Notes: a model not told the origin generated them from the letters alone. Positions 4,323-47,193 are shown, counted from the first letter of the whole stretch. The stretch is DNA of 62,521 bases, filler included, from Globobulimina sp. (GCA_003354225.1; 29 parts of 29 records of this genome joined end to end with filler, not necessarily neighbours in it); one strand, 5' to 3'. Program-made: numbers and translations.

Positions 4323-4682
4323 TACAAAATTGAATGAACATATTTGTTTTTTGTCAAACCTTGCTCCTAAACATAAGTCAACTGCATTTAGATACAGTTT
4401 GTTATCATCATCATAGCCATTTGGATACAGTTTATAATCAAAGACAAAATCATTATTGTACTTAAATGATCCTTTAATAAATTCACCTGGTTTCATATCA
4501 AGCATTTTTTCTAATGGTTTGCTACGAAATGTCATATAAATCATTTCATCAAAAAACAATAAACATAATTTTATAATTGCAATTGGGAAACAATATCTTG
4601 AACTTGGAAGCTTTGAATGTTCTCCAATAAATCCAAATGTTACCATCTCCTTCTGTGATTTGCTTAATTTTTTATGTGACAT
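4323..4682 (-). CDS. Protein with recurrent N-terminal helical module followed by a MATH-like beta region, 3'-truncated
   Basis: VTFGFIGE...FPIAIIKLCLLFF module, then FDYKLYPNG resembling the MATH W.L..YPNG motif. Confidence 0.6.
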
Positions 4683-4734
4683 GTTAAGTATAAGGAATAC
4701 TAAGGATAATTAACGTATTTTATTAATTTCTATC

Positions 4735-6383
4735 ATGTCAACTGATAGCACATTATCAAACTCAATTCCTATCCCCAAAACAATAAACCTGAAGGTAAAC
4801 ACATCGATTGAGGCAGCCTCAACCTCAATATCGCTTTCCAAATCATCATCAGCCGTTCCATCATCAGCCTCCTCCACCACATCATCATCATCGCTGTCAT
4901 CAATACTTAACCTCGGAGAGAATTCACCAGTATCACCCTTTCGATTGTCCCCACATTCAACACCCAATTTTGCATTTAAGCTCGACACAAAATTACACAA
5001 TTCCAACAACGCAGATTCAGATGATATCAAAATCAAAGCAAGAAGTGCCTCGCAGGTTTTGTTATCATTACATCGTATTTACATTGCTTTATTTTATGTT
5101 TATAGCCGCCACCAATTCACCAACACTCTGAGGACGAACCAGTTTGTGAGTTCGGGCAAGAACAACAGGACGAAGACCATGCCAATAATCATTCGAATTC
5201 ATTTTCAATATTTACTTTTCTCCGCAATGAGATTGAATATATTGACGTTGCTATAACGCCCATTATAAATCATTCAAAAACCAATGATGCTCCGAACAAC
5301 AGCGCTGAAGAACGCATTTATAACTTCTTTTGGTTATTTTTTCGAATGGAAAAACTTTTGTTTTTCGGGTTTTGGATTTGTTGCGATTCGTTTTTTTTAA
5401 TTATTACTATATTACCAACACGTGTTTTGTATCGAATTTACAAGAAATTATCGTATTTATTAAACAATGAATGGATATTATTGTATAATAACTTCATTCG
5501 ATATTATTTCTTATATTGTTATTTTACATTAAAATATTCATTTTTGTACAAAACAGTTAGTAAAATATATCATTTTATGAGATACATTGTCTGCTTACAC
5601 TTTATTAAAGATTTTATATTATTTATCTGTTGCAATTGTTGTAAATCGTTTATTAACCGGAATAATAATAATATTTTAAATGGATATAATATGTTTAACA
5701 ATGACAATGAATATAGAGAGTATTTTGAGAATGCCTCTGGTTTTTGTTGCAAATGTGTATGTCTTATAAGTTGTTGTTGTGTCTGTAACCGACATATTCA
5801 TTACAATAAAAAATATGAAAAAGACAGAGGTAAAGTGACAAACAAACAATACAGTGATATTCCAGTATGGTTAATAAAACTGCAAAAAGAGACATTTTCG
5901 AAACGAATGCATTTTTTAGATAGTCACCAATATAAATATATGTACACAGGAAGGGATTATTTGGACATAATACGTCTGCTGACTTTATTATTATGTGTTT
6001 ACATATTGGCACAATTCAATTTATCCCAAATCTATCACTTTATTCGAGCGCAGGAAAACTTTAAACTCTATGTTTTATTTAAAATTATTGTCATTATTCA
6101 ACATTTGATGGCCTCCTTTGGAGAGGATAGCATCGAGGCTTTATTTAATTCATTGAATAGTAAATTACTGCAAAGGAAGAAAATATGTGTAAATTTATGC
6201 ATTTATATCTTTTATAATATAATTCATTCATTGCTGTTATATGGACATTTAATAACTTTGAATGCGGCCATGAACAGCCCCAATAATACACTGATAACCA
6301 TATTGGTGGCGGATAATTTCTACGAATTAAAATCACCTGTTTTCAAAAGATATTATGTTGCAAATGTGTTTGAAAGGTTATGC
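4735..6383 (+). CDS. TAPT1: TAPT1/Emp65 (DUF747) ER membrane protein; join(4735..5055,5106..>6383)
   Basis: 50-nt GT-AG intron 5056-5105 joins two ORFs in frame; ERIYNF...EKLLFFGFWICCDSF...LP.R, SQIYHFIRAQENFKLYVLF, TLNAAMNS, NFYELKSPVFK are TAPT1 hallmarks. Confidence 0.9.
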
Positions 6384-6828
6384 NNNNNNNNNNNNNNNNN
6401 NNNNNNNNNNNNNNNNNNNNNNNNNNNTTAATTAATTAANNNNNNNNNNNNNNNNNNNNNNNNNNNNNNNNNNNNNNNNNNNNCAGTTTATATTAATAAT
6501 TATGATGATGGGCTTGCACTCGCTCATCATCAACACCAATTCTTTCCTTCCTTTTTTCCAATTTTTTCATTATTTTCATTCAGATCGTGGTCATCACAGA
6601 CAACCACATGTTTTGATCCATTTTTTAGCGGCGATAGCCACTAAAATTCATCTTTCCCAATACATTTTTTCATCCTTTTTTTGTTGTAATTGTGGCTGTG
6701 GATTGCCACTAAATATCACATAATATCCACATCGCACTTCATTATCGATTTGAATGTCAATTTATGGATTCCCTCTTGTTCCAAACCAATAAAATTCTGT
6801 TTAAATAAAAAATAACAATCAACTTTTC

Positions 6829-7130
6829 ATTCTCGCCTCCTTAATATATGACGGCATTTATTCTCTCATTCTCGCCGCCTTAATACGTGGCGGCATTGGA
6901 TCCAATTCTCACCGCCTTAATACGTGACGGGATTCCTTCTTTTAATCTCACCGCCTTAATATATGGCGGATTCTTTCTCATTATCGCCGTCTTAATATAT
7001 GACGGCATTCCTTCTCTCATTCTCAATGCCTTAATATATGACGATTCCTTTCTCATTCTCGCCGCCTTAATACGTGACAGCATTGCATCCAATTCACACC
7101 GCCTTAATATATGACGGCATTTATTCTCTC
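6829..7130 (+). repeat. 36-39 bp tandem minisatellite, 8 units, each with a small hairpin
   Basis: Core ATTCTCRCCGCCTTAATAYRTGRCGGCATT; unit lengths 39,37,39,36,39,36,37,39. Confidence 0.95.
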
Positions 7131-7251
7131 ATTTGTGTTCAAATAATTAGTTCTGGGGATTTCGTCCATTCCATTCCTCTCACCGTAGGATTAAGGATGG
7201 ATTTTATTTCAGACTGTTACTGTTGAGAGTACTTTTAAAAATCTGAAAATC

Positions 7252-8007
7252 TCAAAACTGAACCCTCTGAACCAATCTACAGGGAAAGTACTTAAATTTA
7301 CTGCCGCCATTATTTGGTTCAAATACAACGTCATTAATTTCCATATCATATTCTGTTAAAATTAAAACTTGATCAGTTGATTTATCATTTTTCATATCTC
7401 GTTGGGCGTTTTCTAATATTTGTTGAAAATTCATCAATTTTCTGCTGAATTTTGCTTTAGGAAAATGTTTTTGCAGTCAGTCGAATACCTGCAGTCGAAA
7501 CGGATAATGTGTTTTCTATCTTTAGTTGACTAGCTTCGAAGTAGCTTTCATCAGACTTTGAAAATCTTCTTCTTCCTTCCTCTACATACCATAATGCCTT
7601 CACGAAGGAAAGAGCAAACCGAAACTAATCATATTTATATCCCTATAAATTATATACTTTAAAATTTTCATATTCATTTTCATCCAAACTTGACATTATT
7701 GTATAATTATAGCCTTTGCCTAATACATTTTTGTATCTTTCAACATCGTCTTTTACGTCGGGGAGTGATGGACGAGCGGTATTTTTCATCTGTTTCTGTC
7801 TGTATTTGTCTAATATGTTTAAGAATATGTCTCCGATGTCCTGGTAATTCAGTTTCATCCATATCTTGGATACCAGCCATTGTATCAAATCCGGCAGAAA
7901 TGAAATTTTTTATATATTGTGATTTTAAAACTGTTTTTTTAAAGAAATCCACTGCTGCTTTCCTCTGTTTTCTTGAGAGATACTGATATTGATTCTGTTT
8001 GATTTCC
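7252..8007 (-). pseudogene. Degraded SAM-domain gene
   Basis: FFKKTVLKSQYIKNFISAGFDT...PGHRRHILKHI is SAM-like; followed by a frameshift and several in-frame stops. Confidence 0.5.
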
Positions 8008-8644
8008 TTTTTTTTTTTAAGATAAAATAAAATTTAAAAATTATACGCAAAATCGCAAAAACAAAAAAAAATACCTGTTCTTCCTTTTCTTTTCATCACT
8101 GATTTTTTTAAATGATAAAATTGAGAAACTATCGTTTTTATGATAAGAATGAATCGCTAAACAAAATCCAATTTTAGATTTTTTAATATCAAATGCTTTT
8201 TTAATTTTGATGAATTTTTTCCAAATTTTGATGTTTTTGCAAATGAGAGCCAATTTTTATTTAAATTTAATTCCATAGTTATTACATCTCAACTATTCAC
8301 TTCCTTTACCATTTGAATCACATTTAGTACCAAATGCAGAATATCCATAATGAATGATTGAATCCATAATGAATGGCCGATTACCACTTCTGATTTTAAT
8401 TTGCCATTCCTTTCGCTTCCTTTCGGGACTTGCGCACCGTAAACAGTTTTATTGGGTCGATAGACCCTCATACCAGTGATTTCAAAATTTTGAGTTTTTT
8501 TTTAGTACTACTAGTACTACTACTACTACTTTTTTTTAACATTTNNNNNNNNNNNNNNNNNNNNNNNNNNNNNNNNNNNNNNNNNNNNTTAATTAATTAA
8601 NNNNNNNNNNNNNNNNNNNNNNNNNNNNNNNNNNNNNNNNNNNN

Positions 8645-9157
8645 CCGCCACCGATGGATTGCGTCAATTGAAAGCCTTGCGGACAATCACAGCCTTCAGT
8701 TTCGCGACGGATAATGTCTACGGCTTCATCGATTAATTCAGCCCCTTCGGTATAATGCCCTTTAGCCCTGTGAGTGAGTGGCGGTGTGTTAGTGTGTTGG
8801 GGTATGTGTGGATGCGATTTTGCGTCATATGACATACCAATTATTACCAGCACCGGAAGCACCAAAGCACATATTATCGGGTTTGAACAATGCGCCCATT
8901 GGTGAGGCTTTAATAACGTCCATGATACCGGGCTCTAAATCGACTAAACATGCACGAGGCACAAATCGTAAGGTACCGGCTTCTTGGTAATATACATCGA
9001 TTTTGTCCAATCGTAAGGCATCCTCTTTGTTCTCTGGTTTGCCTTTGAATTTGCCATCTTCTGCTAATTTATGTTCTTTTCCCATTGTGTTCCAAAAGGC
9101 GTTACCAATTTGGTTGCCACACTGTCCAACTTGGACGTGAATAATTTCTCTTACCAT
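8645..9157 (-). CDS. TUBB: Beta-tubulin, divergent Retaria/foraminiferan beta2 type; exons 9157..8838 and 8767..<8645
   Basis: [48 protein letters not shown]; 70-nt intron 8768-8837 splits the Trp codon. Confidence 0.97.
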
Positions 9158-9468
9158 GATGCGTTATATATAAACGGGAATTGGTGCAAAGAAGTTTGTT
9201 TTTTTCGGAGAGAATGAAGAAAAGTTAGTGGGAAGTTGTTTGTTGTTTTGATGAAAAAGACTTACAAGCAAAGAAGTATTAAAAACAATGTTGTGTTTAT
9301 CAATCAAAGATATGACAGTATGATTTTGCAGATCTTGCAGACCTTTGGGATCAGTTATTTTCTAAACAATATAAATGGAATCAAAGGAAGCATAAAAAGA
9401 AATACAAACAACTTAAGATTCATTGCACACATTCAAATCAAAGTATTCCTCAATTATATAGTTCTCAT

Positions 9469-10676
9469 ATGATTGAATCATTTAATTTTACTCACTATAC
9501 CATCTCATTCGAATTGAGTAACAGTTACAATCATTTCGCTGCAAATTTGACGCCAAATTGCAATGAAAACATTCAAGAAAACATCCAATATCTGTCTAAT
9601 TATAATAACGTTAAGAATCCATTATCTCAAAAACAAATGTTACATTATAAATTACTCTCATCCTCCAAATCTATGAAACAATTATTATATAACGCACACT
9701 ATATCTCTCATGAGGATACAAAGAGTATTCTTCGTAAACTAAAACATAAAACAATTAACAGCAGAATCTTTGAAGAACTTAGTGGTACGTCCGCATATTA
9801 TGAGAGGAATAATGTATTCCCACAAGAAACGTTACTGTTAATGCAGGGATTTGCATCTGATATATTTATACCTGACGATATTTGTAGTATGATCAAACAT
9901 TATTATTGTCCATCTATGAATGAATTAGGAAATAATATTGTTATATTTAAGTATTGGTATTCGAGTCGTTATTATGATAATTCACCATCGCAACAAACAT
10001 AGGTATAGGGATCTAGGATTTTCCCAGTTGAAATAGCCAAATGAGTGCTGATGAGGGTCTGAGGGGGGCTGGGAGGTGGTGGGTGGCAAAATGGGGGCTG
10101 TGGCTGCCTGTCTGGCTGTCTGACTGTCTGACGACATCATGGATGCCAATTACTTTTTAAAGTGTCTATTTCTTGCAAATCTACACTTATGGGATATTTT
10201 CTCAGCCGTATTTCAGAATACGCAGATTAGATCCCTATACCTATGTTTGTTGCGATGCACGTTATTTTGGTCATGTAGTCGGATGGGACACTAAATATAT
10301 TCACAAGAATTATGTTGCACATGTCTGTAATTATGGAATGACACAAAATAATGTACACGTATTCAAATTGCGTTTAATTGAGAATATAACGGATTCATTA
10401 ACTGTTGATATATTAATTGGTGTAACTCATGAAAAAACATTTACTTTTTATTCTGAGTTGAAATATGAAAAATGTTCAGTTAAATTGTTATCTTTAAATA
10501 ACTGTCGCAATGGAGATATAATTGAGATGATAGTTGATTTGAGAAATAAGGAGCTTAACAAATCAGCAGTATATATATACATAAATGATATACACATTGG
10601 TTCCAAGGGTTCAGAGGCATTTAATGCGTTGGATATGGATATTTATTATCCATTCATTTCTTTTACTAGTAAATAG
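9469..10676 (+). pseudogene. Helical-module plus SPRY-like gene interrupted at about 10000-10172
   Basis: ORF 9469-10002 carries LMQGF...IPDDICSMIKHYY; ORF 10173-10676 has SPRY-like ILIGV, GDIIEMIVDL, YYPFISF; a TAG and a G-rich segment lie between them. Confidence 0.5.
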
Positions 10677-11053
10677 AGCACAAACTTTTCTCATGAAATT
10701 TTGAGNNNNNNNNNNNNNNNNNNNNNNNNNNNNNNNNNNNNNNNNNNNNTTAATTAATTAANNNNNNNNNNNNNNNNNNNNNNNNNNNNNNNNNNNNNNN
10801 NNNNNTAAACATAGGAAGAATAAAGGAAATGATTGGTATGATTCAATCCGATCGCGAGCTAACAAAAAACATTAAATTTAAATTAACAGGCTCTGAAAGT
10901 CTGAATGTTAAATCTTTAATTACCTAATTAAATTAATTGAACTCCTTTTTTGTATTTGTTTCTTGCTAACGCATGTCAATGTGGTTAGAAATTTGTCGTT
11001 TGCGAAGTGTTAACAATGATTTTAAGATTTTCACCAAGTGACTCACTAAACTC

Positions 11054-11894
11054 ATGCAACTGAACATGCCAACTGAACCGTCCATCCTTTGTCTGTTATC
11101 AACCCTTCTTTTATTAGTGATTGATGCACAAAATTGCAAATGGAACAAGGTGGATCTTTCACCTTTAGCCTTCTCTGAAATATCATGCGTCTGGGGAGGA
11201 TTTTGGGAGATGTACGGTTTTGTTTTTATCTTTTTTTTGTACATGTTTTTCGATTAGAATATCTGTTTAAATATGCAATAGCATATATACGCCATGTGGT
11301 GATCGCGTTTCATGCAAAGATAATGCTCACATGGCTGGACAATATAACACGAGATCAAATTCATGCGAAACAATATTAGCATCATGGGATAATTCTGTGT
11401 CGCCTAAACATTCAACGTATAATGGCATGGACCGATGGACATTTTCCTATTCAAACGGAGAAACATCGTGGGGCTGCGACCAAGGAAGATGGTTAGATCT
11501 CGAATATATTTGTGATCCGTCAGAAAAAGCCAATCCTTTCGATGGGGATAAAACAGACTGCGGCGAGGAACATCCAGAGCATGATGATTGCCATTATTTT
11601 GTACGGATATATTCAAACATTGCATGTGTTTCTGATACACAGTCAGCAGCATTGAGTGGTGGATGGATATTTGTAATATCGGTAATTGCTTTGTTGTTTG
11701 GTTATTGTTTATTTGGATATTTGTGGAATGCGTATTATAATAAAGACTGGAATGTGCGACATAATTTGCCTAATGTTGCATTTTGGTATGCATTGCCAAG
11801 ATTAGTTATTGTCGGTTGTATAGTAACCAAACAATCATTGTTTGGATTCGCTGGAAAGGATAATGTTGAGACAAAAGAAGTTTTTAAATTGTAA
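11054..11894 (+). CDS. Mannose-6-phosphate receptor/ATG27-like type I membrane protein; join(11054..11211,11282..11894)
   Basis: Signal peptide, MRH-like cysteines (YTPC, YICD, CHY...AC), TM LSGGWIFVI..., tail LPNVAFWYALP...GC; 70-nt intron restores frame. Confidence 0.85.
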
Positions 11895-11966
11895 AACTGA
11901 ATTAAGCAGAAGTCACCAAAGTTATAAATCAAGTAATACTCGTGTTATATAATCGCATTGCTTTAG

Positions 11967-12100
11967 CACTGCAGACTTGTTTGGTGGGACAACTATTGGC
12001 CAAATGTTCATTGTGGCGATGGATCAACTGCAAAAGTTGAAATCCGACCACCGCAATGAAAAGTTGGTCAATAGTTGTCCTGCAGTGTGTGTCTACAGTG
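11967..12100 (+). mobile_element. Dispersed palindromic hairpin element (MITE-like), copy 1
   Basis: Ends CACTGCAGAC / GTCTACAGTG; nested stems around TCAACT-GCAAA-AGTTGA; homologous to 19310-19345, 39267-39358 and 39491-39590. Confidence 0.8.
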
Positions 12101-12261
12101 TTTGCATGCGAAATATTAAATATTATCAGTTATTTATCACATTAGAAAAATATCAAAAGAAAAGAGGAGCACCATGTACACGAATAAAAGTTTTTCAGTC
12201 TGTTAGCCTCACTCAATAACAATGAGCAACCTATAATTGTGCTATTGGGCACAAAAAGAGA

Positions 12262-12567
12262 ATGTTTGCATATCCACTGCTTCGTCGGTCAACGACTACA
12301 CTCTCAAAACTGAACCTAAAATATTCAATAGCATACCTCCAATCTGCACCGTTCACAGAAAAAACATCATTCGGTAATTTATCAGATTCAGATAGAATAT
12401 TTACTAATTTATATGCAGATGAATCTCCATGGTTAGAGGCGCGTATAAGAGACATCCATCCGGAATTGGCATTTGATTGGTGGTTTAAGCCACGAGTACC
12501 GGAATCTGCCAAACAATATCTTCAGAAACAACATGAAAAGAACCCAGAATCTGCTGATTATTATTAG
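12262..12567 (+). CDS. 101-aa protein: mitochondrial-type presequence plus NDUFV1 (complex I 51-kDa) N-terminal motif only
   Basis: R/S/T/L-rich leader, then KTSFGNLSDSDRIFTNLY; ends TAG TGA. Confidence 0.65.
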   Translation: MFAYPLLRRSTTTLSKLNLKYSIAYLQSAPFTEKTSFGNLSDSDRIFTNLYADESPWLEARIRDIHPELAFDWWFKPRVPESAKQYLQKQHEKNPESADYY

Positions 12568-12965
12568 TGATTGATATTGATAGATTTTTTGTGGTTTTTT
12601 TTTTGTGACATATATGACTTTTATTGTACTAGCTTGTCGTTTAAACATAAATAGGTATATATGAGCACACTAACTCTTTCGTCATTTTGCTTGCTTTTTG
12701 AGTTGTTCTATTGTGTCTGTATTGTATCAATCAGATAGGATCTAAAAGGAAAGACTTCAATTCTTCGATTTGACAAAATTAGAAATTGCCAAATTTTTAC
12801 TTTTTGAAAAGGTTGATCGTAAGATTCTATTTTGTTGTTATGTGTAATTTAGACAGCTCTACAAANNNNNNNNNNNNNNNNNNNNNNNNNNNNNNNNNNN
12901 NNNNNNNNNTTAATTAATTAANNNNNNNNNNNNNNNNNNNNNNNNNNNNNNNNNNNNNNNNNNNN

Positions 12966-13316
12966 TTTGATGGAGTTATTCGAATCTAATTCTGATAATA
13001 ATTTATGTTTTAATACTTTCAATAACAACTGATACAGTATGATTTCATCATATTTGTTCCATTCTGATTGAAATTTACAATGTTTATTTTCTGTTAGTTT
13101 TTGTGAGATTGATTTAATTGCTTTCCCGCTATATTTATAAGCGTTTAGATCCATTAAAATTTCGTTAGTTCCTTTAAATTCTTTTTTTAAAACCTCTGCG
13201 ACGCATTGTCCAATTTGTGCGTTGTTGAACACATCAATCACGAGTAATTTTATGGTTTGCAGTTGTTTTATTGCTTCCAACGACCAAACAGAAAACATGC
13301 TGTGACTAAAAAACAC
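12966..13316 (-). CDS. Hypothetical protein, 3'-truncated
   Basis: Open frame to contig edge; start uncertain. Confidence 0.4.
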
Positions 13317-13366
13317 GGAAGTTATATTTATGATTCTGAAGCACCCCTGGATGAGGTCTAAAGATC

Positions 13367-14014
13367 ATGGCCTCCGAACAAAGGACAACAGTCTACGGAT
13401 ACGTAAGAGACATAAGACGTGGATTGATTCAAATGGAGGGTGAATTATGTAGTGGTGATGAATTATCAAAAATTGCGAACCTGATATTTTGTTGGTACTT
13501 TGGAAAACAAGACATCAAACTACTTTTTTTAGATGTTGATGGTGTATTAAACACAACATATGATAACAACTTAAGAACTGATTTAATAAACAATTTAGCA
13601 AAGATTATAGATTGTACTGGTTGTAAAATTGTATTGAGCAGCGCTTGGAGATTAATACAGAAATATAAAGATCATTTATTTGACGCATTAAGGAAAAGGG
13701 GAAATATTGACATCGGTAATGTGTATATTGGTGATACTCCACTTATTTCAGCTGGGGTTATTCGTACATTTGAAATTGAATCATCGTTGAATGATATAAG
13801 CGTTGTACATAACATTACAGCGTGGTGTGCTGTCGATGATATTGATTTAGCAGACCATCCATTATTATTAGTTAACGATGAACGGTGGTATACCCAAAAT
13901 AAATGCAAAAAAATTATGCAAAATCATTTCGTGAAAACAAACGAAAATGTTGGCTTGAATGAATTTAAAATGGATCAAGTGATCCACATTTTGAATGGTG
14001 GTGCTAAACTATAA
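13367..14014 (+). CDS. HAD-superfamily protein (Swiss-Army-knife RNA-repair HAD type) with N-terminal helical module
   Basis: LFLDVDGVLN, KIVLSSAWR, IGDTP, WCAVDD; N-terminal VYGYVR...IANLIFCWY; ends AKL. Confidence 0.85.
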   Translation: MASEQRTTVYGYVRDIRRGLIQMEGELCSGDELSKIANLIFCWYFGKQDIKLLFLDVDGVLNTTYDNNLRTDLINNLAKIIDCTGCKIVLSSAWRLIQKYKDHLFDALRKRGNIDIGNVYIGDTPLISAGVIRTFEIESSLNDISVVHNITAWCAVDDIDLADHPLLLVNDERWYTQNKCKKIMQNHFVKTNENVGLNEFKMDQVIHILNGGAKL

Positions 14015-14205
14015 ACGACTTTCACCGCTAGACTTTAACAACTAACTATACGATTGATGCACTGACTATAACAATATAGAACTTAAAGACTCTATGAGTG
14101 ATGCATTTGCGTCAAATTGATTTCTTAGTATTTTGAAGCATTCTTTTGTTTTGAGCTAAACTGTCTAATGACTGCCAGCAAACTGAGCAAAAAACCTTAA
14201 CTGTA

Positions 14206-14952: not shown

Positions 14953-15125
14953 GTTTGTGTAGACAGTAACGAAAACACTTCACTGTTTTTATATATTAAT
15001 AGTATATTATTCAAATTTTTCACACNNNNNNNNNNNNNNNNNNNNNNNNNNNNNNNNNNNNNNNNNNNNTTAATTAATTAANNNNNNNNNNNNNNNNNNN
15101 NNNNNNNNNNNNNNNNNNNNNNNNN

Positions 15126-15482: not shown

Positions 15483-15662
15483 AAATTGATCTGAAGTACA
15501 AGTTTACTCATTTCGTGCACCTTTTCAAACTTTTCAATTGCATACTATCAGTCGATCTATCAGACAAATCCAGACTATCACACAAAGAAAAATCAAGAAA
15601 AACGTTTCTAACGGAGATTTCGCTTTGCTTAATCTTTTTTTTTACTGAAAAGCTTCCTCAGC

Positions 15663-33550: not shown

Positions 33551-34462
33551 ATGAATTTTCATTTTCATACCTATACATTTGATGAGCCGCTATGGCCACA
33601 ACAATTTGTTCTTGTAGATAATGACCAATTGTACAGATTTTCCTATTCTTTTGATTTACCATTCAACGCTCGACTATTCATAAAAGGTCATAGTTTGGAA
33701 AAAACAAATCAAGTCCAGAAGTATACCGATATGGTATGGCTGTATATTGAAGCATTAAATCATAGAAAAAAATATGAAATTGGCATTGTATCATTGGTTT
33801 GGTATAAACAGTGCAAATGCAATATTCCATTGGATAAAAACATAATAAATGTCATCAAAAATCATTCCGATTCTATACAATTAACTCAATATCAACTCTT
33901 CTCTTCATTGGCTGATTATTGTCAGAAACCAGAATCAGTGATGAAAGCAGAACATTTAAAACGTTGTATTGAGAAAATCAAAAGTCAACGATTGAAATAT
34001 TCACGCGATCGCCGGAAGAGAGCCGCCGAGTTAGAAATGAAATTACAACACAATGATTGTGACGGCGATGACAAGCGAGCACTACAAATCCAACATTTTT
34101 TAGATGAAAGTCACAGTTTAAGAGAACAACGTGCCGCCAAACAAAAAACCAAAGCCTCTGATTTTAAAATCATTAAAGTCATTGTCGAGGGAGACTTTGG
34201 TGGCGAAGTACGCATGGTTCGTCATAAAGGTAATGGCCATGTTTATGCCATGAAAACTATGTTAAAAAGAAAGTGTATTGCTAAAGGTGTATTTAGTTCA
34301 GCGGGATATTACCATTTAAGGTCAGATGACTCAGATCCATGGGTTGTTACTTTAATTCATGCCTTTCAGGTATACAATGTACGCACATGCAACATGATAA
34401 CATAACCTTTGTACCTGGGCATACTACATAGGATGCTTCGACTATTTATTTGGTGATGGAAT
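33551..34462 (+). CDS. Degenerate NDR/LATS-type AGC kinase; join(33551..34369,34432..>34462)
   Basis: NDR N-terminal regulatory segment (R..R..ELE...ES..LR.QR), DFKIIKVI...GEVR, YAMK, WVV.L..AFQ-D...YLVME; 62-nt intron. Confidence 0.75.
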
Positions 34463-36621: not shown

Positions 36622-36842
36622 NNNNNNNNNNNNNNNNNNNNNNNNNNNNNNNNNNNNNNNNNNNNTTAATTAATTAANNNNNNNNNNNNNNNNNNNNNNN
36701 NNNNNNNNNNNNNNNNNNNNNTATACTGCTTGATTTAATGACGTGCATTATTTTGTTGGTTATTTTTTTAAACATGAGTTAACATTACTAATAATTCTGT
36801 CAACCCTCACTGTTTTCCGCTTTAATGATTTAGATTTAAAGC

Positions 36843-37616
36843 ATGAAGACAAATCAAAACAAGCCGACGACAAATCCGATACAAATACAAAATGTAAAAT
36901 TGGTAGTAATGGGTGATTCTGGTGTTGGTAAGACGGCTGTGATTGTATCATATCATGAGGATGGATTACCAAATCAGCATTTACCTCATGTTTATGATAA
37001 TGTTGTTGCTCAAATACGGAAAAATAACATTGATATTCATTTGGGACTATGGGATGTATCTGGACATGCCGAGTATGACCGACTGAGACCATTATCATAC
37101 CCAAGAACTGATGTGTTTTTATTAATGTATGATATTGCAAACAAGGAATCATTTTTAAATTTACGCAATAAATGGTGTGTGGAGAAGCAGCATCATGTTC
37201 CAGATGCGGCATTTGGTATTGTTGGATGTAAAAAGGATCTGAGAAAGCTAATGGAAACAGCACCAGTCAATGATGAGATGAATGAAAACATATTATTGCT
37301 TGTTATTTGTCATTGGTTGCATGAATGCAATATAAATATGCAGAAAATGGACAAAAGTGTATTGGATATGATTGTGAGTTATAGTCAGTGTCTGAGATCA
37401 AGAAAAGATTATGTCCGATATGAAGATGGTGAACATATGGCAATGCAATTGGGTGCTTGTGGCTATATGGAATGCTCTGCGTTATCAAGAGAAGGATTGG
37501 AAGAATTATTTGAAGCAGCATGCGAATGGGCAATGCGTAAATAGGATTCAGCCACGATTTTGCGGAAACAATATGACAAAAAATACAAAAATAAAAAGGA
37601 TTGTGTCATTTTGTAG
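36843..37616 (+). CDS. Atypical Rho GTPase with helical-module insert; in-frame TAG at 37542-37544 precedes the CAAX tail
   Basis: GDSGVGKT, WDVSGH, YDRLRPLSYP, GCKKDLR, YMECSA; downstream frame DSATILRKQYDKKYKNKKDCVIL-TAG. Confidence 0.9.
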
Positions 37617-37656
37617 ATATATGCTGAGCCGGCTGAAAAATAACACTTTGCCGAAC

Positions 37657-38780
37657 ATGACGTCTTCTTTTCAAGCAATGTTTTTATTTTCGTGGTCATT
37701 CCTGATTATTATTGTGATCTCGACATGCAATCGAACCGATACTAAACTCGATTTCAATTACTATCCCAAATTAAAAATCCCAGTCATTGCGTTATCTGAC
37801 ACCAACAACGTAAACGACATGATATTAAATGCTATGTTGTTCGACGAAAGCATCAAAAACTATGGTATCGCTTTATTACAACTCGATAGCACAGAATCAC
37901 AAAAAACATTTGATTTAACATATGACGCAGTCACAAATTTTTTCAAAAATACAAGTTATGGCTATAGAAACAATTTCGTTCTTTCTGGTTCATATTATCC
38001 CTTTGGCCGCGAACAATATACTTTAAAACGACAAATGATGGAACAATTAATATCATCCGTTGCTAAAACTGATAAAGATTTTTTTAACACCACTCAAAAA
38101 GCAGAACCCTTAGATTCTTATTACGTATTTCAACAACAACATAAATTTAAATTTGATTTTAATGACAAATTTGTTGCCAAAATACCAGTCGATTTTCGTC
38201 AAGAAACTGTAGAAACATTTTACGAATTTCATGCCATATTTAAGAAAATAATGCATTTGGCATCAATAGCTCTTGGGTTTAATGGTAATGTCTTGATGAA
38301 TGATGAGGAATTATTATTTGATGAATACGCGCATAATTTGAAATATGCGCATTATTTAAGATTACATACAAAGAATCAAACGGATATACAGTATGATAAA
38401 AGAATGGATATTTGCCATTTTCCATATAGATATGGCATACATTTTGATGTCGGCGTGGTAACATTACAGAGAATGGATCCCAACATGCAGGGATTTCAAA
38501 TATTTGTCAATGATCAATGGTATTCTATCGATGCCAACCATTATCCAACAAATTCAATTTTAGTGTTGAATGGTAAGCATATGGAATATTGGACCAATGG
38601 GTATTGGAAAGCGAGTATTCATCGTGTTTTAAGCGATTATCAACATAGGATTCCTTTGTTATTTTTTACGCAACCTTCAGCAAATCTTGTTATTCAACCT
38701 ATAAATGGTTGCAAGGTCTGTAAAAATCATGACTCACAAGCTCAATATGATGACATTTATGGGAAAACTACCAATCAATT
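37657..38780 (+). CDS. 2-oxoglutarate/Fe(II) dioxygenase (IPNS-like), signal peptide, 3'-truncated
   Basis: IPVIAL, YGI..L, HFD, SIHRV, RIPLLFF; probable start MTSSFQ. Confidence 0.85.
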
Positions 38781-38880
38781 NNNNNNNNNNNNNNNNNNNN
38801 NNNNNNNNNNNNNNNNNNNNNNNNTTAATTAATTAANNNNNNNNNNNNNNNNNNNNNNNNNNNNNNNNNNNNNNNNNNNN

Positions 38881-39239
38881 GTATTATGAACGGATGGCAA
38901 GCCAACTTCATTGTTTGCACGAGATATGAGGAATGCAGTGGTTTCCATGTTCTTCAGAAATGTAAACCACTGCAGCAACAAACGCGGTGGAAAAAACAAC
39001 GAGATAAGCCATGATTGTGTGGTCCATGAATATGTTTTGTTGTGCAAAGATGTCATATTTATGCCCACGTCCACTGCCAATGGGAAATACACATCAATGA
39101 ATACATTGTATGCGTACCCTTTATATCCTCGTACTGGATCGTTGTAACCGCAGTCAAAATGATTCATCAAAACCATACGAACATCGGTAATCTCGTCGCT
39201 TGATTGGCTCTTACTTGTCTTCAGCAACAACGCAAACAT
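38881..39239 (-). CDS. GH38-like/DUF5054-type secreted protein, N-terminal fragment
   Basis: VLMNHFDCGY, YFPLA, WTTQSWLISL. Confidence 0.6.
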
Positions 39240-39266
39240 AAATACGCAACAAACCGAAGCAGTGCC

Positions 39267-39358
39267 ACTGAGCTAATTTATTGTGGAGAGCGATCAACTC
39301 CAAAAGTTGAAGTCCGATCACGGTGATGGAAATTAGCTCAATAGTTGTGACTGCAGTG
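39267..39358 (+). mobile_element. Hairpin element copy 3
   Basis: TGAGCTAATT...TCAACTCCAAAAGTTGA...AATTAGCTCAATAGTTGTGACTGCAGTG. Confidence 0.85.
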
Positions 39359-39490
39359 GATGTGATGTAATCCTTTATATTTTAATCTCATAATATCATA
39401 TATATTATATATATATATATTTATTATATTCCCATAATTGAAGATTTGTTGTACATTTTGATATTTGTTTGTTACTTTTGAGTTCACAAC

Positions 39491-39590
39491 CACTACAGAC
39501 ACATACTGCAGTCACAACTGTTGAGCGAATTTTCATTATGGTACTTCAACTTTTGGAGTTAATCGCTCACCACAATAAATTAGCTCAATA
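39491..39590 (-). mobile_element. Hairpin element copy 4, inverted relative to copy 3
   Basis: Reverse complement reads TTGAGCTAATTTATTGTGGTGAGCGATTAACTCCAAAAGTTGAAG...GTGACTGCAGTATGTGTCTGTAGTG. Confidence 0.85.
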
Positions 39591-39940
39591 ACGGTGTAGA
39601 GGTATCCAAAAAACACATCAAAAATATGGCCAAGTCTGTATTAACTCTCACAAGCAACGAACAAATATCAATACTCCCAAAAAAACTAAATTTATGGGAA
39701 TACATTATTAATTGATTGGCAATGCAAACAATTCATTCTTTACGACATTATTTAAAATTTATTATTATTTGCAATAGAACATGAAACATTTCCTGTTGTT
39801 GCCATAAAATGCAAGGCTCCATCTAATTTATCTGCAGTCAAATCCGCGGTGTTTCCAAAAGGTAGTATTCTAATTCTGAGTCATTTACATCAACACACAA
39901 AAACCTTTACCAACTCCCTTTTCCGGCCTTTGTTTCAACC

Positions 39941-40939
39941 ATGAATTATAGCCACTTGCTAACGCTAATAATAATATTAGCATATTTATCACAGACTTCA
40001 GTTTGTCAGACACATCAAGAAGAAGCAAATGCGCGCGCAAACCGAGGCTCCTTATCAGCCATTGGTAATATTCCTCGATATGGCGGCGATGCAACATTAG
40101 ATAGAGACGATTTTTCCGATCCAATGCCGTATCTAACTGGTATTATATCCATTGTAGCAATTCCGATATTATTTGTCGCATTTAGTGTGTTATTATGTCC
40201 CTTCTGGACATTGTGTAGATGCTGCAAATGTTGTTGTTGCCGAAAGAAAAGACCAAAAGATCCGATTACAAAATGCCAAATCTACACACCATATTTCATT
40301 GTGTTTAGTTGTGTCGTTGCAATCGTGGCCATGGTAGCAATCGCTTACGGAGCAAATGTAGATTTTAGTGGAGCATTGTTGTACAACGAAGGAGAAGGTG
40401 TAGATGGTAATTTATTTGGTGTGGCAGAAGAGTTTATGTCTGATGGTGTAAATAAAACGTATACCATCAAATTGATAACAATGTCAATCAAAGAAAATGT
40501 GATTTCCGCCATTGATGGGGTCCAAGATATATTGAATGATACCTCGATATTGACAGTTGGTTCCACCACATTAATAAATATGTTATACAGCATTTCCAAT
40601 CTATGGAATGGGTACAACGTAACAACGACGTATGACTCTCAAACTTATTCCTTTGAGTGCACATTTTGCACCACATTCAGCCAAACAATCAATAACATTA
40701 CGAATCAAATTGATGACCAAACTGGCCCAATATTTGAATCCTTAAATTCCACAGTTTCAGCCATTGGGTCCACGCTATTAAACGTCGAAGGCGACATTAT
40801 TGAGCAAATAGATGGCTTTATTGAGCAAATTGGTGATGTGCATGATGAGGTGATGTCGGCTGAGGACACGGTGCTTTCCGCTCGGCCAGCCATCGAAGAT
40901 TATAATAATAAGCGCGAGATTGGCTATAATATCATATTT
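39941..40939 (+). CDS. Tweety/prominin-like multi-pass membrane protein, 3'-truncated
   Basis: Signal peptide, TM, poly-Cys juxtamembrane stretch, TM2, long helical ectodomain. Confidence 0.55.
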
Positions 40940-41039
40940 NNNNNNNNNNNNNNNNNNNNNNNNNNNNNNNNNNNNNNNNNNNNTTAATTAATTAANNNNN
41001 NNNNNNNNNNNNNNNNNNNNNNNNNNNNNNNNNNNNNNN

Positions 41040-43098
41040 GCACATTGTACGCCGATGACATCATATTAACAGCGAACAAAATCTCGCACCTACATAAACT
41101 CCTAAAAATATGCGAAACTCACAGTAATAAATGGCAATATCGATTCAATCAAAAAAAGTGTAAAACAATAATATATAATGATAACAGCATAAATAACAAC
41201 AACTTAAACACATATAATATTAATGATATATTCCTAATCAATCATGAATACCACAGCCATCCGCACATTGACAATAATAAACCAGCCCCAATGATACTTC
41301 TTCAAAAACCCATAAACAATCAAATAATGGCAATAAATATCCATAACCAAATGCAGAACTATAATAAAAACGAAATACCCCAAAAACACCTAAATCGATT
41401 CATTGACCATATCAAATTCTATAATAACATTAATGATAAGCCATTCCCAATCATGTGGGATAACATTCGCTATGATCGCCATTATTCTCCTTCAGTAATG
41501 CATCTAAAATTGCAACTGAACGGAACAAGTCTACACTGCACAACATTCATCAGATACCTTGGAGCAATGTTGTGCAGCTACGACATGACGAACCTGGTCT
41601 CAACGCAGTATACGAATGCGGTTTTTTTAAAAAAGCTTGACTGTAAAGCGAATATTCTCTCCACGTTGGATTTCAATCATATTTATATCCCCCTCAACGA
41701 TAAGATTAGAATCCTGAAGACATTCTATTTAGTATATACGGAGATATTCGCACAGGTTCTTGATTGTGACCAAATAAACTTGCAGGAAGCCACAAAAAAA
41801 CAACTGCAAACAATCAGCATACAAACAGGAATCAAAAAATTTGTCCCGGCGCAACTATATCTTTGGGCAGGTATCCCAACCCCATACGAACGGTGGATTT
41901 CCCTCAAACTTGCATTTTATTGGAAGCTCCTAAAAGGAGACAAGATCTCATTGATGCATAAGTGGGCCCATCTGCCACACATTCGTCACCATAAACTATA
42001 TAAGCAATACATTGACTTAAAAAGCAAGTGGCTACCCCCTCAAAAGCAGATAATCCATAATGAAATCCATTGGGTGGACCCGTATGACACCGTTACGCAC
42101 GCACATGAGCTAAAACCATTGATAGTCCTCCACCAACACAAACAAATTATAAAACAACTCAATAGATTCCATCCAATAAAAACATTAAACCATATAACCG
42201 ATAATTATAAATCAATGAACATATATGAGTCCGATGAATTAGCAGAATATATCAACAATGATATGATACTCACTTACCGAGAATTATTCTATAATTTTAA
42301 TAAAATGAGTAATCACTGCAATCTATGCCATACAAACACCAATGTCCCCATTGAATACCATTTAGTTATTCAGTGCCCACATTTAAACGCATTGAGACAT
42401 GAATATTGGAATCATGCCACATTCACATTCTCTAAAAGTGGAGCTGCCATCAACCACATCCATCATCACCTATATATGCAGAGATTGATTGAAATATGCA
42501 ATAATGTCAATTTACATAAAACCATATTCTGGAACATCATCTGTGGTGCCAACTATTATGACAGCGACACCAACAAATTTGCATACAAACACAGAGCAAT
42601 AAACATCAACACAACCAAAAACACCCTATATAGAGATGTCATCTCCCAGTCCCACAGATGGCTGCACCACGTCCTACAAATCAACAAAGACAGAAATAAC
42701 ATATGTAAGATACAATGCAAACATAATTTGGTACCATCTGAAAAAATAATCTTCCACATACGGAACGATAACATCAGTGAATGGCACCAATATAAACATA
42801 AATTGAACCCCAATGATATCGTAATTGCCACAGATTCCTCACATGACCCGCACACAAACACCACTGGAATAGGCATATGCATCATAGACAGAGGAAATGT
42901 ACATTGTTTTGCCCAACCAATAGGATCCCAGAGCAACCATTATGGCGAATTATATGCCATCCTTAAATCCAAATTCTTACTAAATTATTGCCGAATACAA
43001 ACAACAAACAGACGCATCTTAATCTTCACTGATTCATTATACAATTTCCTCCCTCTGATAATTACACCAAAACGAAAAGAAAAAAATCCAAACTCAGT
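41040..43098 (+). mobile_element. Non-LTR retrotransposon ORF2 fragment: RT C-terminal half, zinc finger, RNase H
   Basis: YADD, FNQKKC, RYLG; CNLC...H...QCP; RNase H TDSS...G.G...SNHYGELYAI...IFTDS; frame open over the whole contig. Confidence 0.93.
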
Positions 43099-43257
43099 NN
43101 NNNNNNNNNNNNNNNNNNNNNNNNNNNNNNNNNNNNNNNNNNTTAATTAATTAANNNNNNNNNNNNNNNNNNNNNNNNNNNNNNNNNNNNNNNNNNNNGA
43201 CGGCATGGTCAGTAATTTAAAAAAAAAATCAAAATAGAAACACTCCGATACATAATA

Positions 43258-44077
43258 TCATTTGAATATATATTCATTATCAATGTTAATTCCATATAAT
43301 TCTGTTGGTATACTAGCGACTCTTAGCTGTGTTTCCTTGTCATGTATGTTTATGTGAGGTACCCACCCTCTTTTCCTTCTGGGTAATTTGAATAGTTTCG
43401 GTTCCTCGTGATTTGAATCAGTGTCACCGACAATGCACCATTTTATTTCAAATTTGTCCAAATCCAAAAACATATCAATTTGACATTCTTTTTGCTTACA
43501 AAAATACCACGATGATGCATCATTATGTTCCTTGTAATCAATTCCATTTAAAAGCGGAAACCATTGATCACAATTTGCCATTCCGTACACTGAATAGGTT
43601 CCATTTTCAGTTGAATAAAATAAGCAATATAAAATTATAAATATACCGAGTTCATATGAGTCATCCATATGTTTCTTTTTTTGACTCAATCCATACAAAA
43701 TCCATCCCTTCGAGGGATTCTTTGTCTGTTTTTAATTAAGATATTAATTATAGAATATATTTAATATAATATGTGATATCTTAACGTACATGAAACCGCC
43801 AGCAATGTTTGCCTTTTTTAACAGCTCCAACATCACAAATTGCATAACAGTGCTGATTTTTTTTGCCTTTGATGCATTTATTATTGTCTTTTAATAACAC
43901 ATTCTTTGATTTATATTTGGCGCTAAATCTCAATATTTTGAATGTTTCCAAATAAAATGAGAGACATAAACGTATTATTTCAGTAGGCATTAACATTGAT
44001 GATGTTAATGATACTGCGTATTGTTTCCGTATGTAACCAAATACAAACAGTTCATTCTTCAATATATACGATTCCAT
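43258..44077 (-). CDS. Helical-module plus SPRY-like protein; exons 44077..43790 and 43725..43258
   Basis: LFVFGYIR...MPTEIIRLCLSFY; GKHCWRF, IDMFLDLD, WVPHINI; 64-nt intron. Confidence 0.8.
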
Positions 44078-44135
44078 GCTCAGAAGTTTTGTTTTGCAAA
44101 GTTTTTTAAAGAACGGATTTTTTAAATTACTGACC

Positions 44136-45143
44136 ATGTCTTCTTTCTCAGCCAGTGTTTTTGTGGACAAACACCATCCACACGTCTTGAAACGGTATAA
44201 AATATATATATGACTGCCTACTGTATATAGATAATAAAATTGAATCTATATAGAGTGATAACAGAATACCATGGAAAAGACGATGAGTGGAAAGCACAAG
44301 ATACAATACGCGTAGTTTGTCGTTTCCGGCCAGCAAATCGCAGCGAAAAGGCCTATTCGCGACAGAATAGGATATCTGACAAACCACCCCGTTATGAGAC
44401 GGCACATAGAATAGTTTTGTCGCGGAGTGACGGCAGAGATAAACAAAAAGCATCGACATCGACCTCAAAACAGAAGGCATTTATATGCACATTGGACCAC
44501 ATATTAAACCCTCAAACAACGCAAAAAGAAGTGTTTTATTTGGTGGGGCAACCGATGATTTTGTCGTGTTTACAGGGCTTCAATTCCACCATTTTTGCGT
44601 ATGGACAAAGTGGGTCTGGCAAAACGTGGACAATGTTCGGTCCCGAAGACAGCGGCGATGTTAACACCATCCATCAATTTGGTTTAATCCCTCGTTGTTT
44701 CATATATTTATTTCAAAAGTTGCAGCAAAACAACAACCAAAACAACAAAGTGACTATGCAGTTGCTTCAAATCTACAAACGCGATTTATTGGATTTACTG
44801 AACCCGAAATCCCGCGCAAAGTTAGTGATAAAAACGGATTTTCGAAACGACTCCGTTTTTGTGCAGAATCTGACCTCAATCCAAGTGTCGTCGGTCGAGG
44901 AAGCTTTTGCGTGTTTAACGGAGGCGCAGTCGAACAGAATCGTGGCATCCCACGCTTTGAACGCTGTGTCGTCGCGGTCTCACATGTTGGTGATGGTGAA
45001 TATTGTGCAGATATTCAAGGATGGCTCCCTCAAACGCTCTAAGCTGAACTTTGGAGACTTGGCCGGCTCCGAGGACTTAACCAAAGCATTGGGCAGAAAC
45101 CCGGAGCAAGAACGGAGAGAGGAAGCCATTGCGATCAACTCTT
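44136..45143 (+). CDS. Kinesin motor domain, interrupted after AINSS; join(44136..44194,44254..~45143)
   Basis: IRVVCRFRP, AYGQSGSGKT, NAVSSRSH, DLAGSE; 59-nt intron. Confidence 0.93.
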
Positions 45144-45491
45144 CCGATGGTTCTGCAGGTTTGAAAAGATCTGGTTATCAAACCTTTCAATCTTTTCAAT
45201 CTTTACATAGATCCTTTCAAACAAATCAAACTCAGATCCTTTCAAACTTTTCAATGANNNNNNNNNNNNNNNNNNNNNNNNNNNNNNNNNNNNNNNNNNN
45301 NTTAATTAATTAANNNNNNNNNNNNNNNNNNNNNNNNNNNNNNNNNNNNNNNNNNNNAATAAAAATTGAGGAAATATTGCGGCATAACAAGATTTATTTC
45401 GCATGAAACTCCGATACAAAAACGATTTATTTTGATATAACATTACCGATCGAGTGCAAGGATGAATAGCTGCCCAACAAACAAAATACAA

Positions 45492-46379
45492 TCAAAACCC
45501 AAAAACATTTTCAAATGAAAATTTTTTATTCGAATCATCAACATATCCGTCGGATCGATCTTCTTTATTCTTTTTCAATTTTTTTCCTTTTTTCTGTTTT
45601 TTCTGTTTTTTGGCTTTTGTTTTTCTTTTTTTTTTGGGCGAATTATTATCGTTTCCATAATCATTTATTTCACTGAATTTTCGCTTTTTTTTCCGATTAT
45701 TTTTTTGTTCCAATTCCTTATTTTTTCTCGCTTTTTTTTCTTTCATTTTTTCATCCATTTGTGAGAAATGTTTGGTTATGATATTATCAATGAATAATAA
45801 TCGATTATCATTGTTAATGGCTGTGTGTAATACATCGGTTGTGATTAAATTGTCTACATTCTTTATATTTTTTCTTTTGGATTTTTTGGTATCCAATGCA
45901 ACCACATTTAAATTTGACGGTGGATCTGAACCGTGACTTTTATTTGCATTTTTTCCAATGACAACATCATTACATTTGTTTAATAAATCATTTGTCAGTA
46001 ACTCCATGAATTTGATAACAGTTTGTGATGCGTTTGCTTTTACTTTACCGATTTGCTCATTCTTTTGCAGACATTTTTTAATACAATTTGTTGTATATGT
46101 TACTTTATGCTTTTTTGATGATGATTTAGCTGTATTGAGGCTTGATTGTTTTTTCTTGTTAGTGTTGTTTGTTGACAACGCTTTACATTCCTTTAGCTTT
46201 ATATGTAAACCATTGTTAAAATTATCGCTTTGTTTCAATGAGGACCATATCTCAGCGATCATGGCTATTTTTTCTTCTCTAGTCGATGATTCCATTTTTT
46301 CTGATGCAAACACAGCTTTTTGTAAAGCGTTGTATGCTGCAGATGACGGTTTATTGTACGAAGTCTGTGATTCTGCCAT
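45492..46379 (-). CDS. Histone-fold protein (NC2-alpha/NF-YC-like) with Lys-rich tail
   Basis: IKKCLQKNEQIGKV...ELLTNDLL...ITTDVLHTAI...LLFIDNII. Confidence 0.7.
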   Translation of the reverse strand: MAESQTSYNKPSSAAYNALQKAVFASEKMESSTREEKIAMIAEIWSSLKQSDNFNNGLHIKLKECKALSTNNTNKKKQSSLNTAKSSSKKHKVTYTTNCIKKCLQKNEQIGKVKANASQTVIKFMELLTNDLLNKCNDVVIGKNANKSHGSDPPSNLNVVALDTKKSKRKNIKNVDNLITTDVLHTAINNDNRLLFIDNIITKHFSQMDEKMKEKKARKNKELEQKNNRKKKRKFSEINDYGNDNNSPKKKRKTKAKKQKKQKKGKKLKKNKEDRSDGYVDDSNKKFSFENVFGF

Positions 46380-46494
46380 GATGCTAAGTAGTCAACTAAT
46401 TCTTTGATTTATTCAACTTTTTTTACAATCATTTTCTTGATCACGTCAATAAGCAACAATTCGGTCAATGAAAACATACACAAAATTCTTAATT

Positions 46495-47193
46495 TTATAA
46501 TGGAATCTGAAATATTTCCATTTCAGATATGGAGAAAGTATATTGCGTCTTTGTTCCAACCAATGTTTGGTGCTCCGGAATTTTATACCACAAATTTTTT
46601 TGAAGCGCACGATTACGACAACAGATATGCGTATTCTCACTCCACATCGGATAAATTACAATATCTGCGCCTGACGGTCCAAAAATAAAAAAATAGCCAT
46701 ATCCATTGTAAAATACTGCATTTTTGCCATTTGTGTTTTTAGTATCATAAATTTCCCTTTTTTTGTCAGGCGTTCCTTTGAATACATAGGTAAATGCATT
46801 GGCATCAGATAAATATTTGCAACTATCACCAGCCACAATATCAATAGTACAGTAACCACCAAATATGTAATTATCACATGATTTGATAACAAATAAATAA
46901 GGTCCATTACTGGTTAATAGTTTAAACATCGTCTTTTCATCACCACTGTCTCTGCTACATCTCATCAATAATTTTATAGTTGACAGTCTTTCAGCTGATA
47001 TCCGTGTGGATAATAAATCGAAGAAATCATTCAATTCTTGATCATTGTCATTGAAAATTAGTGAGTCCAATGGGATAAAATAAAAATGGAAACAAAGAGT
47101 AATAATATCATCTGGTACTACCAACTTTATATCATGCATAAGAATATATCCTTGCACTAAGATTTGGCTTCGTTGCTTTCGAGTATTAGACAT
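46495..47193 (-). CDS. Helical-module plus TLDc-domain protein
   Basis: LVQGYI...VPDDIITLCFHFY; LLMRCSRD, IFGGY, DANAF, FGPSGAD, F.ISEMEIF. Confidence 0.85.
   Translation of the reverse strand: MSNTRKQRSQILVQGYILMHDIKLVVPDDIITLCFHFYFIPLDSLIFNDNDQELNDFFDLLSTRISAERLSTIKLLMRCSRDSGDEKTMFKLLTSNGPYLFVIKSCDNYIFGGYCTIDIVAGDSCKYLSDANAFTYVFKGTPDKKREIYDTKNTNGKNAVFYNGYGYFFIFGPSGADIVIYPMWSENTHICCRNRALQKNLWYKIPEHQTLVGTKTQYTFSISEMEIFQIPL

Follow-up and report, generated by a model that had tools for sequence, protein, structure and literature searches.

A short helical module, found mostly at the N-terminus of many otherwise unrelated foraminiferal proteins and probably a docking tag

The window analysed here, a whole stretch of 62,521 nucleotides (1-62521) from Globobulimina sp. 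(GCA_003354225.1), encodes several copies of a short helical protein module of approximately 40 residues that is found mostly at the N-terminus of otherwise unrelated proteins and that probably serves as a docking tag. The window is composed of 29 contigs of 2058-2061 bp each, which are ordered by size (2061 down to 2058) and separated by spacers of the form N44-TTAATTAATTAA-N44; the genes on either side of a spacer are therefore not linked, and together the contigs sample a fragmented assembly of a foraminifer at random. Base composition is AT-rich, with a guanine-cytosine (GC) content of 27-42%, and for one window protein the nearest relative with a species name is from the foraminifer Globobulimina turgida (85% identity). 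The initial annotation of this DNA described a motif shared by five sites and, in a variant form, by two more, and proposed that it marks a lineage-specific system of adaptors for E3 ubiquitin ligases. All seven of its peptides were found where it had placed them, the five main ones on five different contigs.

The window was translated in six frames into 1310 open reading frames (ORFs) of at least 25 residues, which were scored with a hidden Markov model (HMM) of the module composed of 114 database proteins and no window sequences as rows. Three copies were matched strongly. The first (i3, ELFVFGYIRKQ...MPTEIIRLCLSFY) lies at 43952-44053 on the (-) strand, 8 residues behind a start Met at 44077, and scores E 1.1e-14; the second (i5, QILVQGYILMH...VPDDIITLCFHFY) lies at 47080-47166 (-), 9 residues behind a start Met at 47193, and scores E 2.6e-13; the third (i1, EMVTFGFIGEH...FPIAIIKLCLLFF) lies at 4551-4649 (-), 11 residues behind a start Met at 4682, and scores E 2.3e-12. 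The best unrelated window ORF reaches E 0.25 with the same model. These three of the five sites also ranked first among the 1310 ORFs in a leave-one-out comparison based on the window copies together with the database protein P0001 (E 3e-7, 6e-7 and 1.6e-4, the last of these for i1), and the same comparison missed the remaining two, which came at rank 57 (the site at 9826) and rank 376 (the site ahead of a HAD domain).

The fourth copy (i2, LLLMQGF-ASD-IFIPDDICSMIKHYY; 9826-9906, (+)) is shortened, as the middle of its first helix is missing and the HMM match (E 9.3e-4) covers only its C-terminal half, that is, the second helix. It sits approximately 175 codons into a 228-codon ORF (9316-9999, (+)) with a GC content of 31%; either the module is internal in this ORF, or the coding sequence upstream of it is part of another exon or gene. 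The fifth (i4, RTTVYGYVRD...SKIANLIFCWY; 13382-13498, (+)), at the N-terminus of a HAD_SAK_2 protein, is a borderline and divergent copy (E 0.072, rank 5 of 1310) that the HMM matches as two fragments in the correct order; its second helix is free of gaps in a 119-row alignment and has Leu in place of a Pro that is 99% conserved elsewhere. The motif is thus confirmed at three of the sites and in shortened form at a fourth, the HAD site staying borderline, so that the module is present on three to five of the 29 size-sorted 2 kb contigs. No DNA similarity was found between the window copies, and therefore selection acts on the protein; a repeated DNA element as the source of the copies was ruled out on the same ground.

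The two variant sites, one reported inside a Rho GTPase (37281-37400, (+)) and one ahead of a kinase (33770-33880, (+), upstream of a kinase fragment), gave no HMM alignment even at E<=1000 and were rejected as copies of the module. The first of them falls within the enlarged insert of a Ras/Rho-type GTPase (ORF 36840-37541, (+); Pfam Ras E 2.1e-34), in which residues 20-229 (210 residues) are matched to 158 model positions. This insert of approximately 50 residues is unusually long and is located between the NKxD-type motif and the SAL motif.

The i3 gene encodes the module and a SPRY-like domain in approximately 251 residues and spans 43261-44077 (-), with exon 1 at 43790-44077, exon 2 at 43261-43725, and the stop codon at 43258-43260. 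Its 64-nt intron (43726-43789, (-)) is bounded by GT..AG (GTACGT...AACAG) and is based on the match of both ORFs to contiguous parts of P0109, P0100, and P0105, with the splice sites read from the sequence; splicing preserves the spacing HCWRxxxxNP of the family. The SPRY-like character of this class is weak, the best PDB match of its profile being a butyrophilin (BTN3A3) chain at E 0.9, which we take to be the B30.2/SPRY part. A second SPRY-like domain had been proposed after the copy at 9826, for which no support was found; the ORF downstream of that copy (10161-10673) has no recognisable family. On its contig, the i3 gene (start 44077, (-)) is arranged head to head with a kinesin-motor ORF (44231, (+); Pfam Kinesin E 9.4e-59), with a gap of approximately 150 bp between them.

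The i5 gene (46498-47193, (-)) is a single exon encoding 232 residues, namely the module followed by a TLDc domain (Pfam TLD E 6.5e-11, residues 57-230), just as the initial annotation had it, and P0003, P0004, P0005, and P0072 are homologues with the same architecture of module and TLDc. Contigs from sequencing runs that may be of RNA, approximately 95% alike, cover 46688-47183 including the module; they were not used as evidence of expression. The i1 gene (4323-4682, (-)) contains the module and the start of a MATH-like region and ends at the contig edge. Its likeness to MATH was upheld in part: the window fragment itself has no Pfam match, and the support comes from a two-sequence BLASTP comparison with P0153 (E 2e-5, residues 6-89, including a YPNG/YPTG stretch), a protein whose own MATH_2 match is below threshold (26.7 bits vs a cut-off of 32). 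The gene carrying i4 (13367-14011, (+)) encodes the HAD domain that had been recognised there (HAD_SAK_2, E 1.8e-18), a family that takes its name from 'Swiss Army Knife' RNA-repair proteins of bacteria; no HAD relative carrying the module is present among the 154 stored proteins.

Beyond the window, the module proved to be widespread. A module-only profile (A6, with seven rows and 49 positions) was scored against 1.84 billion cluster representatives (50% identity) and matched 276 of them at E<=0.001 (lowest E 3.8e-17), in agreement with the very large family that had been predicted from the window. Of these 276 matches, 150 listed proteins are the base for the re-scan and for the position and Pfam counts that follow; a clear module was found again in 148, and P0027 and P0047 were rejected as repeat-rich false matches. 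Other kinds of search contributed less. Of the word-indexed searches with the module, whose index needs shared 5-mers, one gave a single match, P0001, at E 3.3, and another returned the query only; a search of the ESM Atlas with residues 1-45 of P0008 gave no usable match. A search with TLDc gave P0003 to P0005, and the N-terminal motif is present in all of them.

Sources were looked up for 29 module-bearing proteins, in addition to the truncated P0002. All 12 that carry a species name come from Foraminifera, with nine from Bolivina argentea, two from Nonionella stella, and one from Ammonia sp.; the remaining 17, which have no species attached, consist of one MMETSP transcript and 16 ENA/Logan/NCBI records. 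The module has so far been seen only in Foraminifera, and the named genera are rotaliid. The EukProt/MMETSP entries of these species are presumably transcriptome-derived, in which case the module would be expressed. No family in the 2025 copy of Pfam covers it, and the literature listings and the opening parts of abstracts contain no mention of it. It is a new, previously undescribed protein module.

The module comprises approximately 40 residues, or 40-50 profile positions, and its consensus is ELLVxGYIRxIQxLLSxxxIIPxDIIxLCLLFY. Among 114 sequences, the columns with the highest conservation are Gly (100%), Pro (99%), Cys (87%), and Ile at three positions (84-85%), followed by Phe (82%), Leu (78%), Arg (72%), and Tyr at two positions (71%). 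The invariant positions are kept within copies that are otherwise 30% identical, and columns 44-50, after the second helix, are weakly conserved. The 150 proteins contain 163 modules. In 83 of these, the Gly lies within the first 25 residues, at a median of 14 from Met1; a further 40 have a Met 8-25 residues upstream and probably lie at the N-terminus as well, in ORFs that were called too long, and the remaining 40 are internal. Counting those at the N-terminus together with those that have a Met 8-25 residues ahead, 123 of the 163 modules (approximately 75%) are placed in this way.

AlphaFold2, given the 119-row alignment, predicts a helical hairpin with a first helix at 3-23, a loop at 24-31, and a second helix at 32-48 (mean predicted local distance difference test score, pLDDT, 75.9). 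Both predicted helices are amphipathic; in the consensus, ELLVxGYIRxIQxLL makes up the first and xDIIxLCLLFY the second, and the loop between them ends in IIP. Conserved hydrophobic residues occur at two per turn in both helices, and these stripes probably exceed what a lone hairpin can bury, from which we infer that the module must pack against something else. A model of the whole 232-residue TLDc protein (9 alignment rows) had a pLDDT below 50 in the module and is uninformative on packing against TLDc. Structure searches with a 49-residue hairpin do not discriminate between folds, and it is within this limit that their results are to be read: Foldseek found no PDB match for the module model at E<=0.001 (best E 3.8), none of its 15 chains reached Z>=2 when compared again, and VIA-align against 48,161 chains gave a best Z of 5.9, with generic helical hairpins and no F-box, SOCS-box, RIIa, or DPY-30 among the best 50.

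The proteins to which the module is attached are highly diverse. When the module was masked, the 116 proteins with at least 80 other residues were clustered by BLAST into 59 partner groups, 50 of which are singletons; this shows that the module is shuffled and bears out the earlier description of a helical module grafted onto a wide variety of proteins. The largest group (33 proteins) consists of Kelch propellers with a total length of approximately 370-420 residues, which leaves no room for a BTB-BACK unit. The best PDB match of a 20-member profile of this class is a designed Kelch protein (E 2e-13); the nearest natural relatives of known structure are KLHL2/3/7/20 and KLHDC10 (KLHL3 at E 1.5e-12), KEAP1 comes lower among the matches, and these KLHL, KLHDC10, and KEAP1 proteins are cullin substrate receptors. 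The second group (9 proteins) is the weakly SPRY-like class of the i3 gene, and TLDc forms a group of 6. A Pfam family was recognised at E<=1e-3 in 31 of the 150 proteins: Kelch-type families in 8, TLD in 4, SPRY in 3, the false match P0047 in 1, and single cases of MATH_2, Ras, RCC1, tubulin, Vps4 (MIT-AAA), RasGEF, RING, UBA, ZZ, CCCH, Agenet, FH2, a kinase fragment, a dynein stalk, and FKBP. An intramolecular capping role of the module was ruled out, since it would have to fit downstream domains that have no kinship with one another.

Several individual architectures illustrate this range. For instance, P0132 (Bolivina argentea, 469 residues) is a Vps4 orthologue with MIT, AAA, and Vps4_C domains that has an in-frame module at approximately 102-147 in its MIT-AAA linker, and P0111 (209 residues, from an ENA contig) has the module directly before a tubulin-family GTPase domain (Pfam E 1.1e-20). 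In P0097, the module precedes a Ras-family GTPase and in P0106 an RCC1 propeller. Two long proteins carry several copies: P0129 (1608 residues) has four modules and two FKBP domains, and P0007 (1430 residues, Nonionella stella) has two modules and a UBA domain.

The rest of the window encodes ordinary eukaryotic proteins, among which are the kinesin motor and the Ras-type GTPase described above as well as U-box, PARP, SBDS, ceramidase, and reverse-transcriptase sequences, the last as a fragment. The U-box protein (48754-49572, (-); E 3.6e-15), the protein with a PARP catalytic domain (50086-51228, (+); E 5e-16), and the reverse-transcriptase fragment (41042-43096, (+)) are each located on a contig of their own and do not carry the module.

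The safest inference on function is that the module is probably a docking tag that brings the attached domains to one shared partner, because it is conserved on dozens of unrelated backbones, stands mostly at the N-terminus, and has too much hydrophobic surface to stand alone. Such a tag would have no activity of its own; the hydrophobic faces of its helices would dock a variable target-binding or effector domain, be it a Kelch propeller, a SPRY-like, TLDc, MATH, or RCC1 domain, a small GTPase, or another, onto that partner. The likeliest partner would belong to a cullin-RING ubiquitin ligase, as an adaptor or as a scaffold. The carriers would then be substrate receptors, and the tag, though no detectable homologue of the F-box, BC-box, or BTB, would be analogous to them in function. 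A role of this kind is suggested tentatively, by analogy with the partner domains and with how such families behave, and its chances are short of even: the attached domains (Kelch, SPRY-like, MATH, RCC1, small GTPase, and RING/UBA/ZZ) and the scale of the expansion match those of receptor families, and expansion on this scale is typical of F-box and BTB receptors. The resemblance of the partners (Kelch, SPRY-like, MATH, RCC1, Ras) to those of F-box, BTB, and SOCS-box receptors, which the initial annotation had pointed out, holds up in the larger sample. The wider proposition, that Foraminifera evolved a cullin-RING receptor tag of their own, with maybe thousands of genes per genome and possibly as their largest gene family, is slightly more doubtful.

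Each of the known tags resembles the module in some respects. Like the F-box, the module is helical, has approximately 45 residues, is N-terminal, directly precedes Kelch, SPRY, MATH, and RCC1-type domains, and is greatly expanded in one lineage; its second helix opens with a conserved Pro and then [DE]-I-I, much as the first F-box helix does. The F-box, of approximately 40-50 residues, has three helices, as does the SOCS box, and starts with its LPxE helix, whereas the module is predicted to have two, with the Pro-led helix last and a conserved LLVxGYIR helix before it, and also occurs in multi-copy proteins. The SOCS box is likewise a short helical tag shuffled onto SPRY domains and small GTPases, and the I-x-x-x-C-x-x-x-aromatic spacing around the conserved Cys of the module resembles its BC-box; the SOCS box differs in being C-terminal, against approximately 75% of modules at the N-terminus, and no Cul-box-like element follows the module. 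The BTB is N-terminal and shares Kelch, MATH, small GTPase, and RCC1 partners (BTB-Kelch, MATH-BTB, RhoBTB, and RCBTB), and the Kelch class of the module is closest to the KLHL and KEAP1 propellers; the BTB itself, however, has approximately 120 residues and a mixed alpha/beta fold, unlike a two-helix module of approximately 40 residues, and gave no Pfam match. The second helix of the module, IPxDIIxLCxxFY, can be likened to the first helix of the F-box (LPxEIL..I) and to the BC-box (SLxxxCxxxI), and its LLVxGY and IPxDIIxLCxxFY stretches to the short motifs of RIIa/DPY-30, LLQG[YL] in helix 1 and PxxPxxFxxxY[FL] in helix 2, the second helix being Pro-capped and closing with an aromatic pair in both cases. 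This likeness is a lead only, since each of these is an amphipathic helix with a Pro or Ser cap. LisH, IQ, and zinc-binding motifs were also considered and rejected, as their patterns do not fit and only one Cys is conserved.

Several findings count against a cullin-RING receptor role. The Pfam families F-box (PF00646, PF12937, and related), SOCS_box, BTB, RIIa (PF02197), Dpy-30 (PF05186), and VHL are absent from nine window ORFs at E<=1 and from the 150 family members at E<=1e-3; at E<=10, in 119 members, the first five do not figure in the top 25, by frequency, of the 91 families. Profile searches of the PDB (A6 and A9, E<=10) returned no F-box, SOCS, VHL, or Elongin-complex chain, nor any PKA regulatory-subunit or DPY-30 chain. 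The sequence-level kinship to the F-box or SOCS box that had been considered at first is thus not supported, and the module is not a demonstrable member of the F-box, SOCS-box, BTB, or RIIa/DPY-30 families, since the profile test failed for each of them. Its two-helix model also differs from the three-helix F-box and SOCS box, though this is a prediction only (pLDDT 76). Furthermore, the partner spectrum is known only in part, with no Pfam family at E<=1e-3 in 119 of the 150 proteins, and some of the recognised partners are enzymes or housekeeping proteins and not receptors (HAD, FKBP, the Vps4 linker insertion, and the tubulin-like protein). The 114-sequence HMM is not fully independent of the window either, since it descends from a profile with four window copies. 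Finally, 11 of the 150 proteins have two to four modules, with adjacent copies in P0019 and P0049; to our knowledge, adjacent or multiple copies do not occur in F-box or SOCS-box proteins, and they fit self-association better.

Self-association is the basis of the foremost rival explanation, which we consider somewhat less likely than the ligase role. A four-helix bundle would arise from the pairing of two hairpins, as in RIIa/DPY-30, whose X-type homodimer binds an amphipathic helix, and the module would be a homotypic docking and dimerisation domain with no ubiquitin ligase involved; it would either bring the attached domains together as dimers or gather proteins with a single module on multi-module scaffolds, for which P0129 and P0007 are possible candidates if the module pairs with itself. 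Like RIIa/DPY-30, a helix-turn-helix of approximately 40 residues that is often N-terminal and linked to varied effector domains, the module is predicted to be a two-helix hairpin of approximately 45 residues, is mostly N-terminal, and has wide hydrophobic stripes on both helices. The adjacent copies in P0019 and P0049 could form a bundle within one molecule, the enzyme partners favour this explanation as well, and the motif likeness to RIIa/DPY-30 points the same way. On the other hand, the first helix and the loop of the module are longer, the partner spectrum is unlike that of known RIIa/DPY-30 proteins, and the Pfam and PDB searches above found neither an RIIa/Dpy-30 family nor a corresponding chain. 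Moreover, hundreds of near-identical interfaces would be expected to cross-pair indiscriminately unless all of them target one hub. A two-copy complex prediction with the 49-residue module had a score of 0.00, with the alignment unused and the fold uncertain, and counts neither way.

The general features of a docking tag would also fit some other shared partner, for instance a cytoskeletal or motor scaffold of reticulopodial transport, or a membrane contacted through the conserved Cys, with the module acting as a localisation signal and not as an adaptor for degradation. Cases related to the cytoskeleton and trafficking (tubulin-like, dynein stalk fragment, FH2, Vps4, Ras, and RasGEF) and the presence of one Cys, 87% conserved, in a hydrophobic helix are in favour of such a partner; the cytoskeletal cases, however, are single among the 150 proteins, in which Kelch, SPRY-like, and TLDc partners dominate, and we regard it as distinctly unlikely.

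Less probable by far is an extremely diverged but true homologue of the F-box or SOCS box. The resemblance of the second helix to the first F-box helix and the BC-box, and the position of some 45 N-terminal residues directly before Kelch, SPRY, or MATH domains, an arrangement that F-box proteins also have, would suit it, but neither the HMMs of the F-box and SOCS families nor PDB chains were matched, the Pro-led helix comes second in a two-helix model with no conserved helices after it, and the motif likeness is weak, given how common Pro- or Ser-capped amphipathic helices are. An explanation by chance, by a repeat or mobile element that happens to be translated, or by an artefact of gene prediction can be dismissed for practical purposes, for although the original pattern was loose and two of its seven sites are not members, the matches reach E 1e-14 in the window and 3.8e-17 in the whole library, the copies share no similarity in DNA while keeping their invariant positions at approximately 30% identity, and the module is present in presumably transcriptome-derived entries of three named species.

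Foraminiferal genomes are large, fragmented, and almost unannotated, and a module of 40 residues would establish a domain family not described before, through which hundreds to thousands of their 'hypothetical' proteins could begin to be understood. If it is a docking-dimerisation module, no larger expansion of this principle would be known. If it is a tag of ligase receptors, it would be an independently evolved counterpart of the F-box, BTB, and SOCS-box expansions in plants, nematodes, and vertebrates and would point to a large, fast-evolving system of protein turnover or defence in a major group of marine protists.

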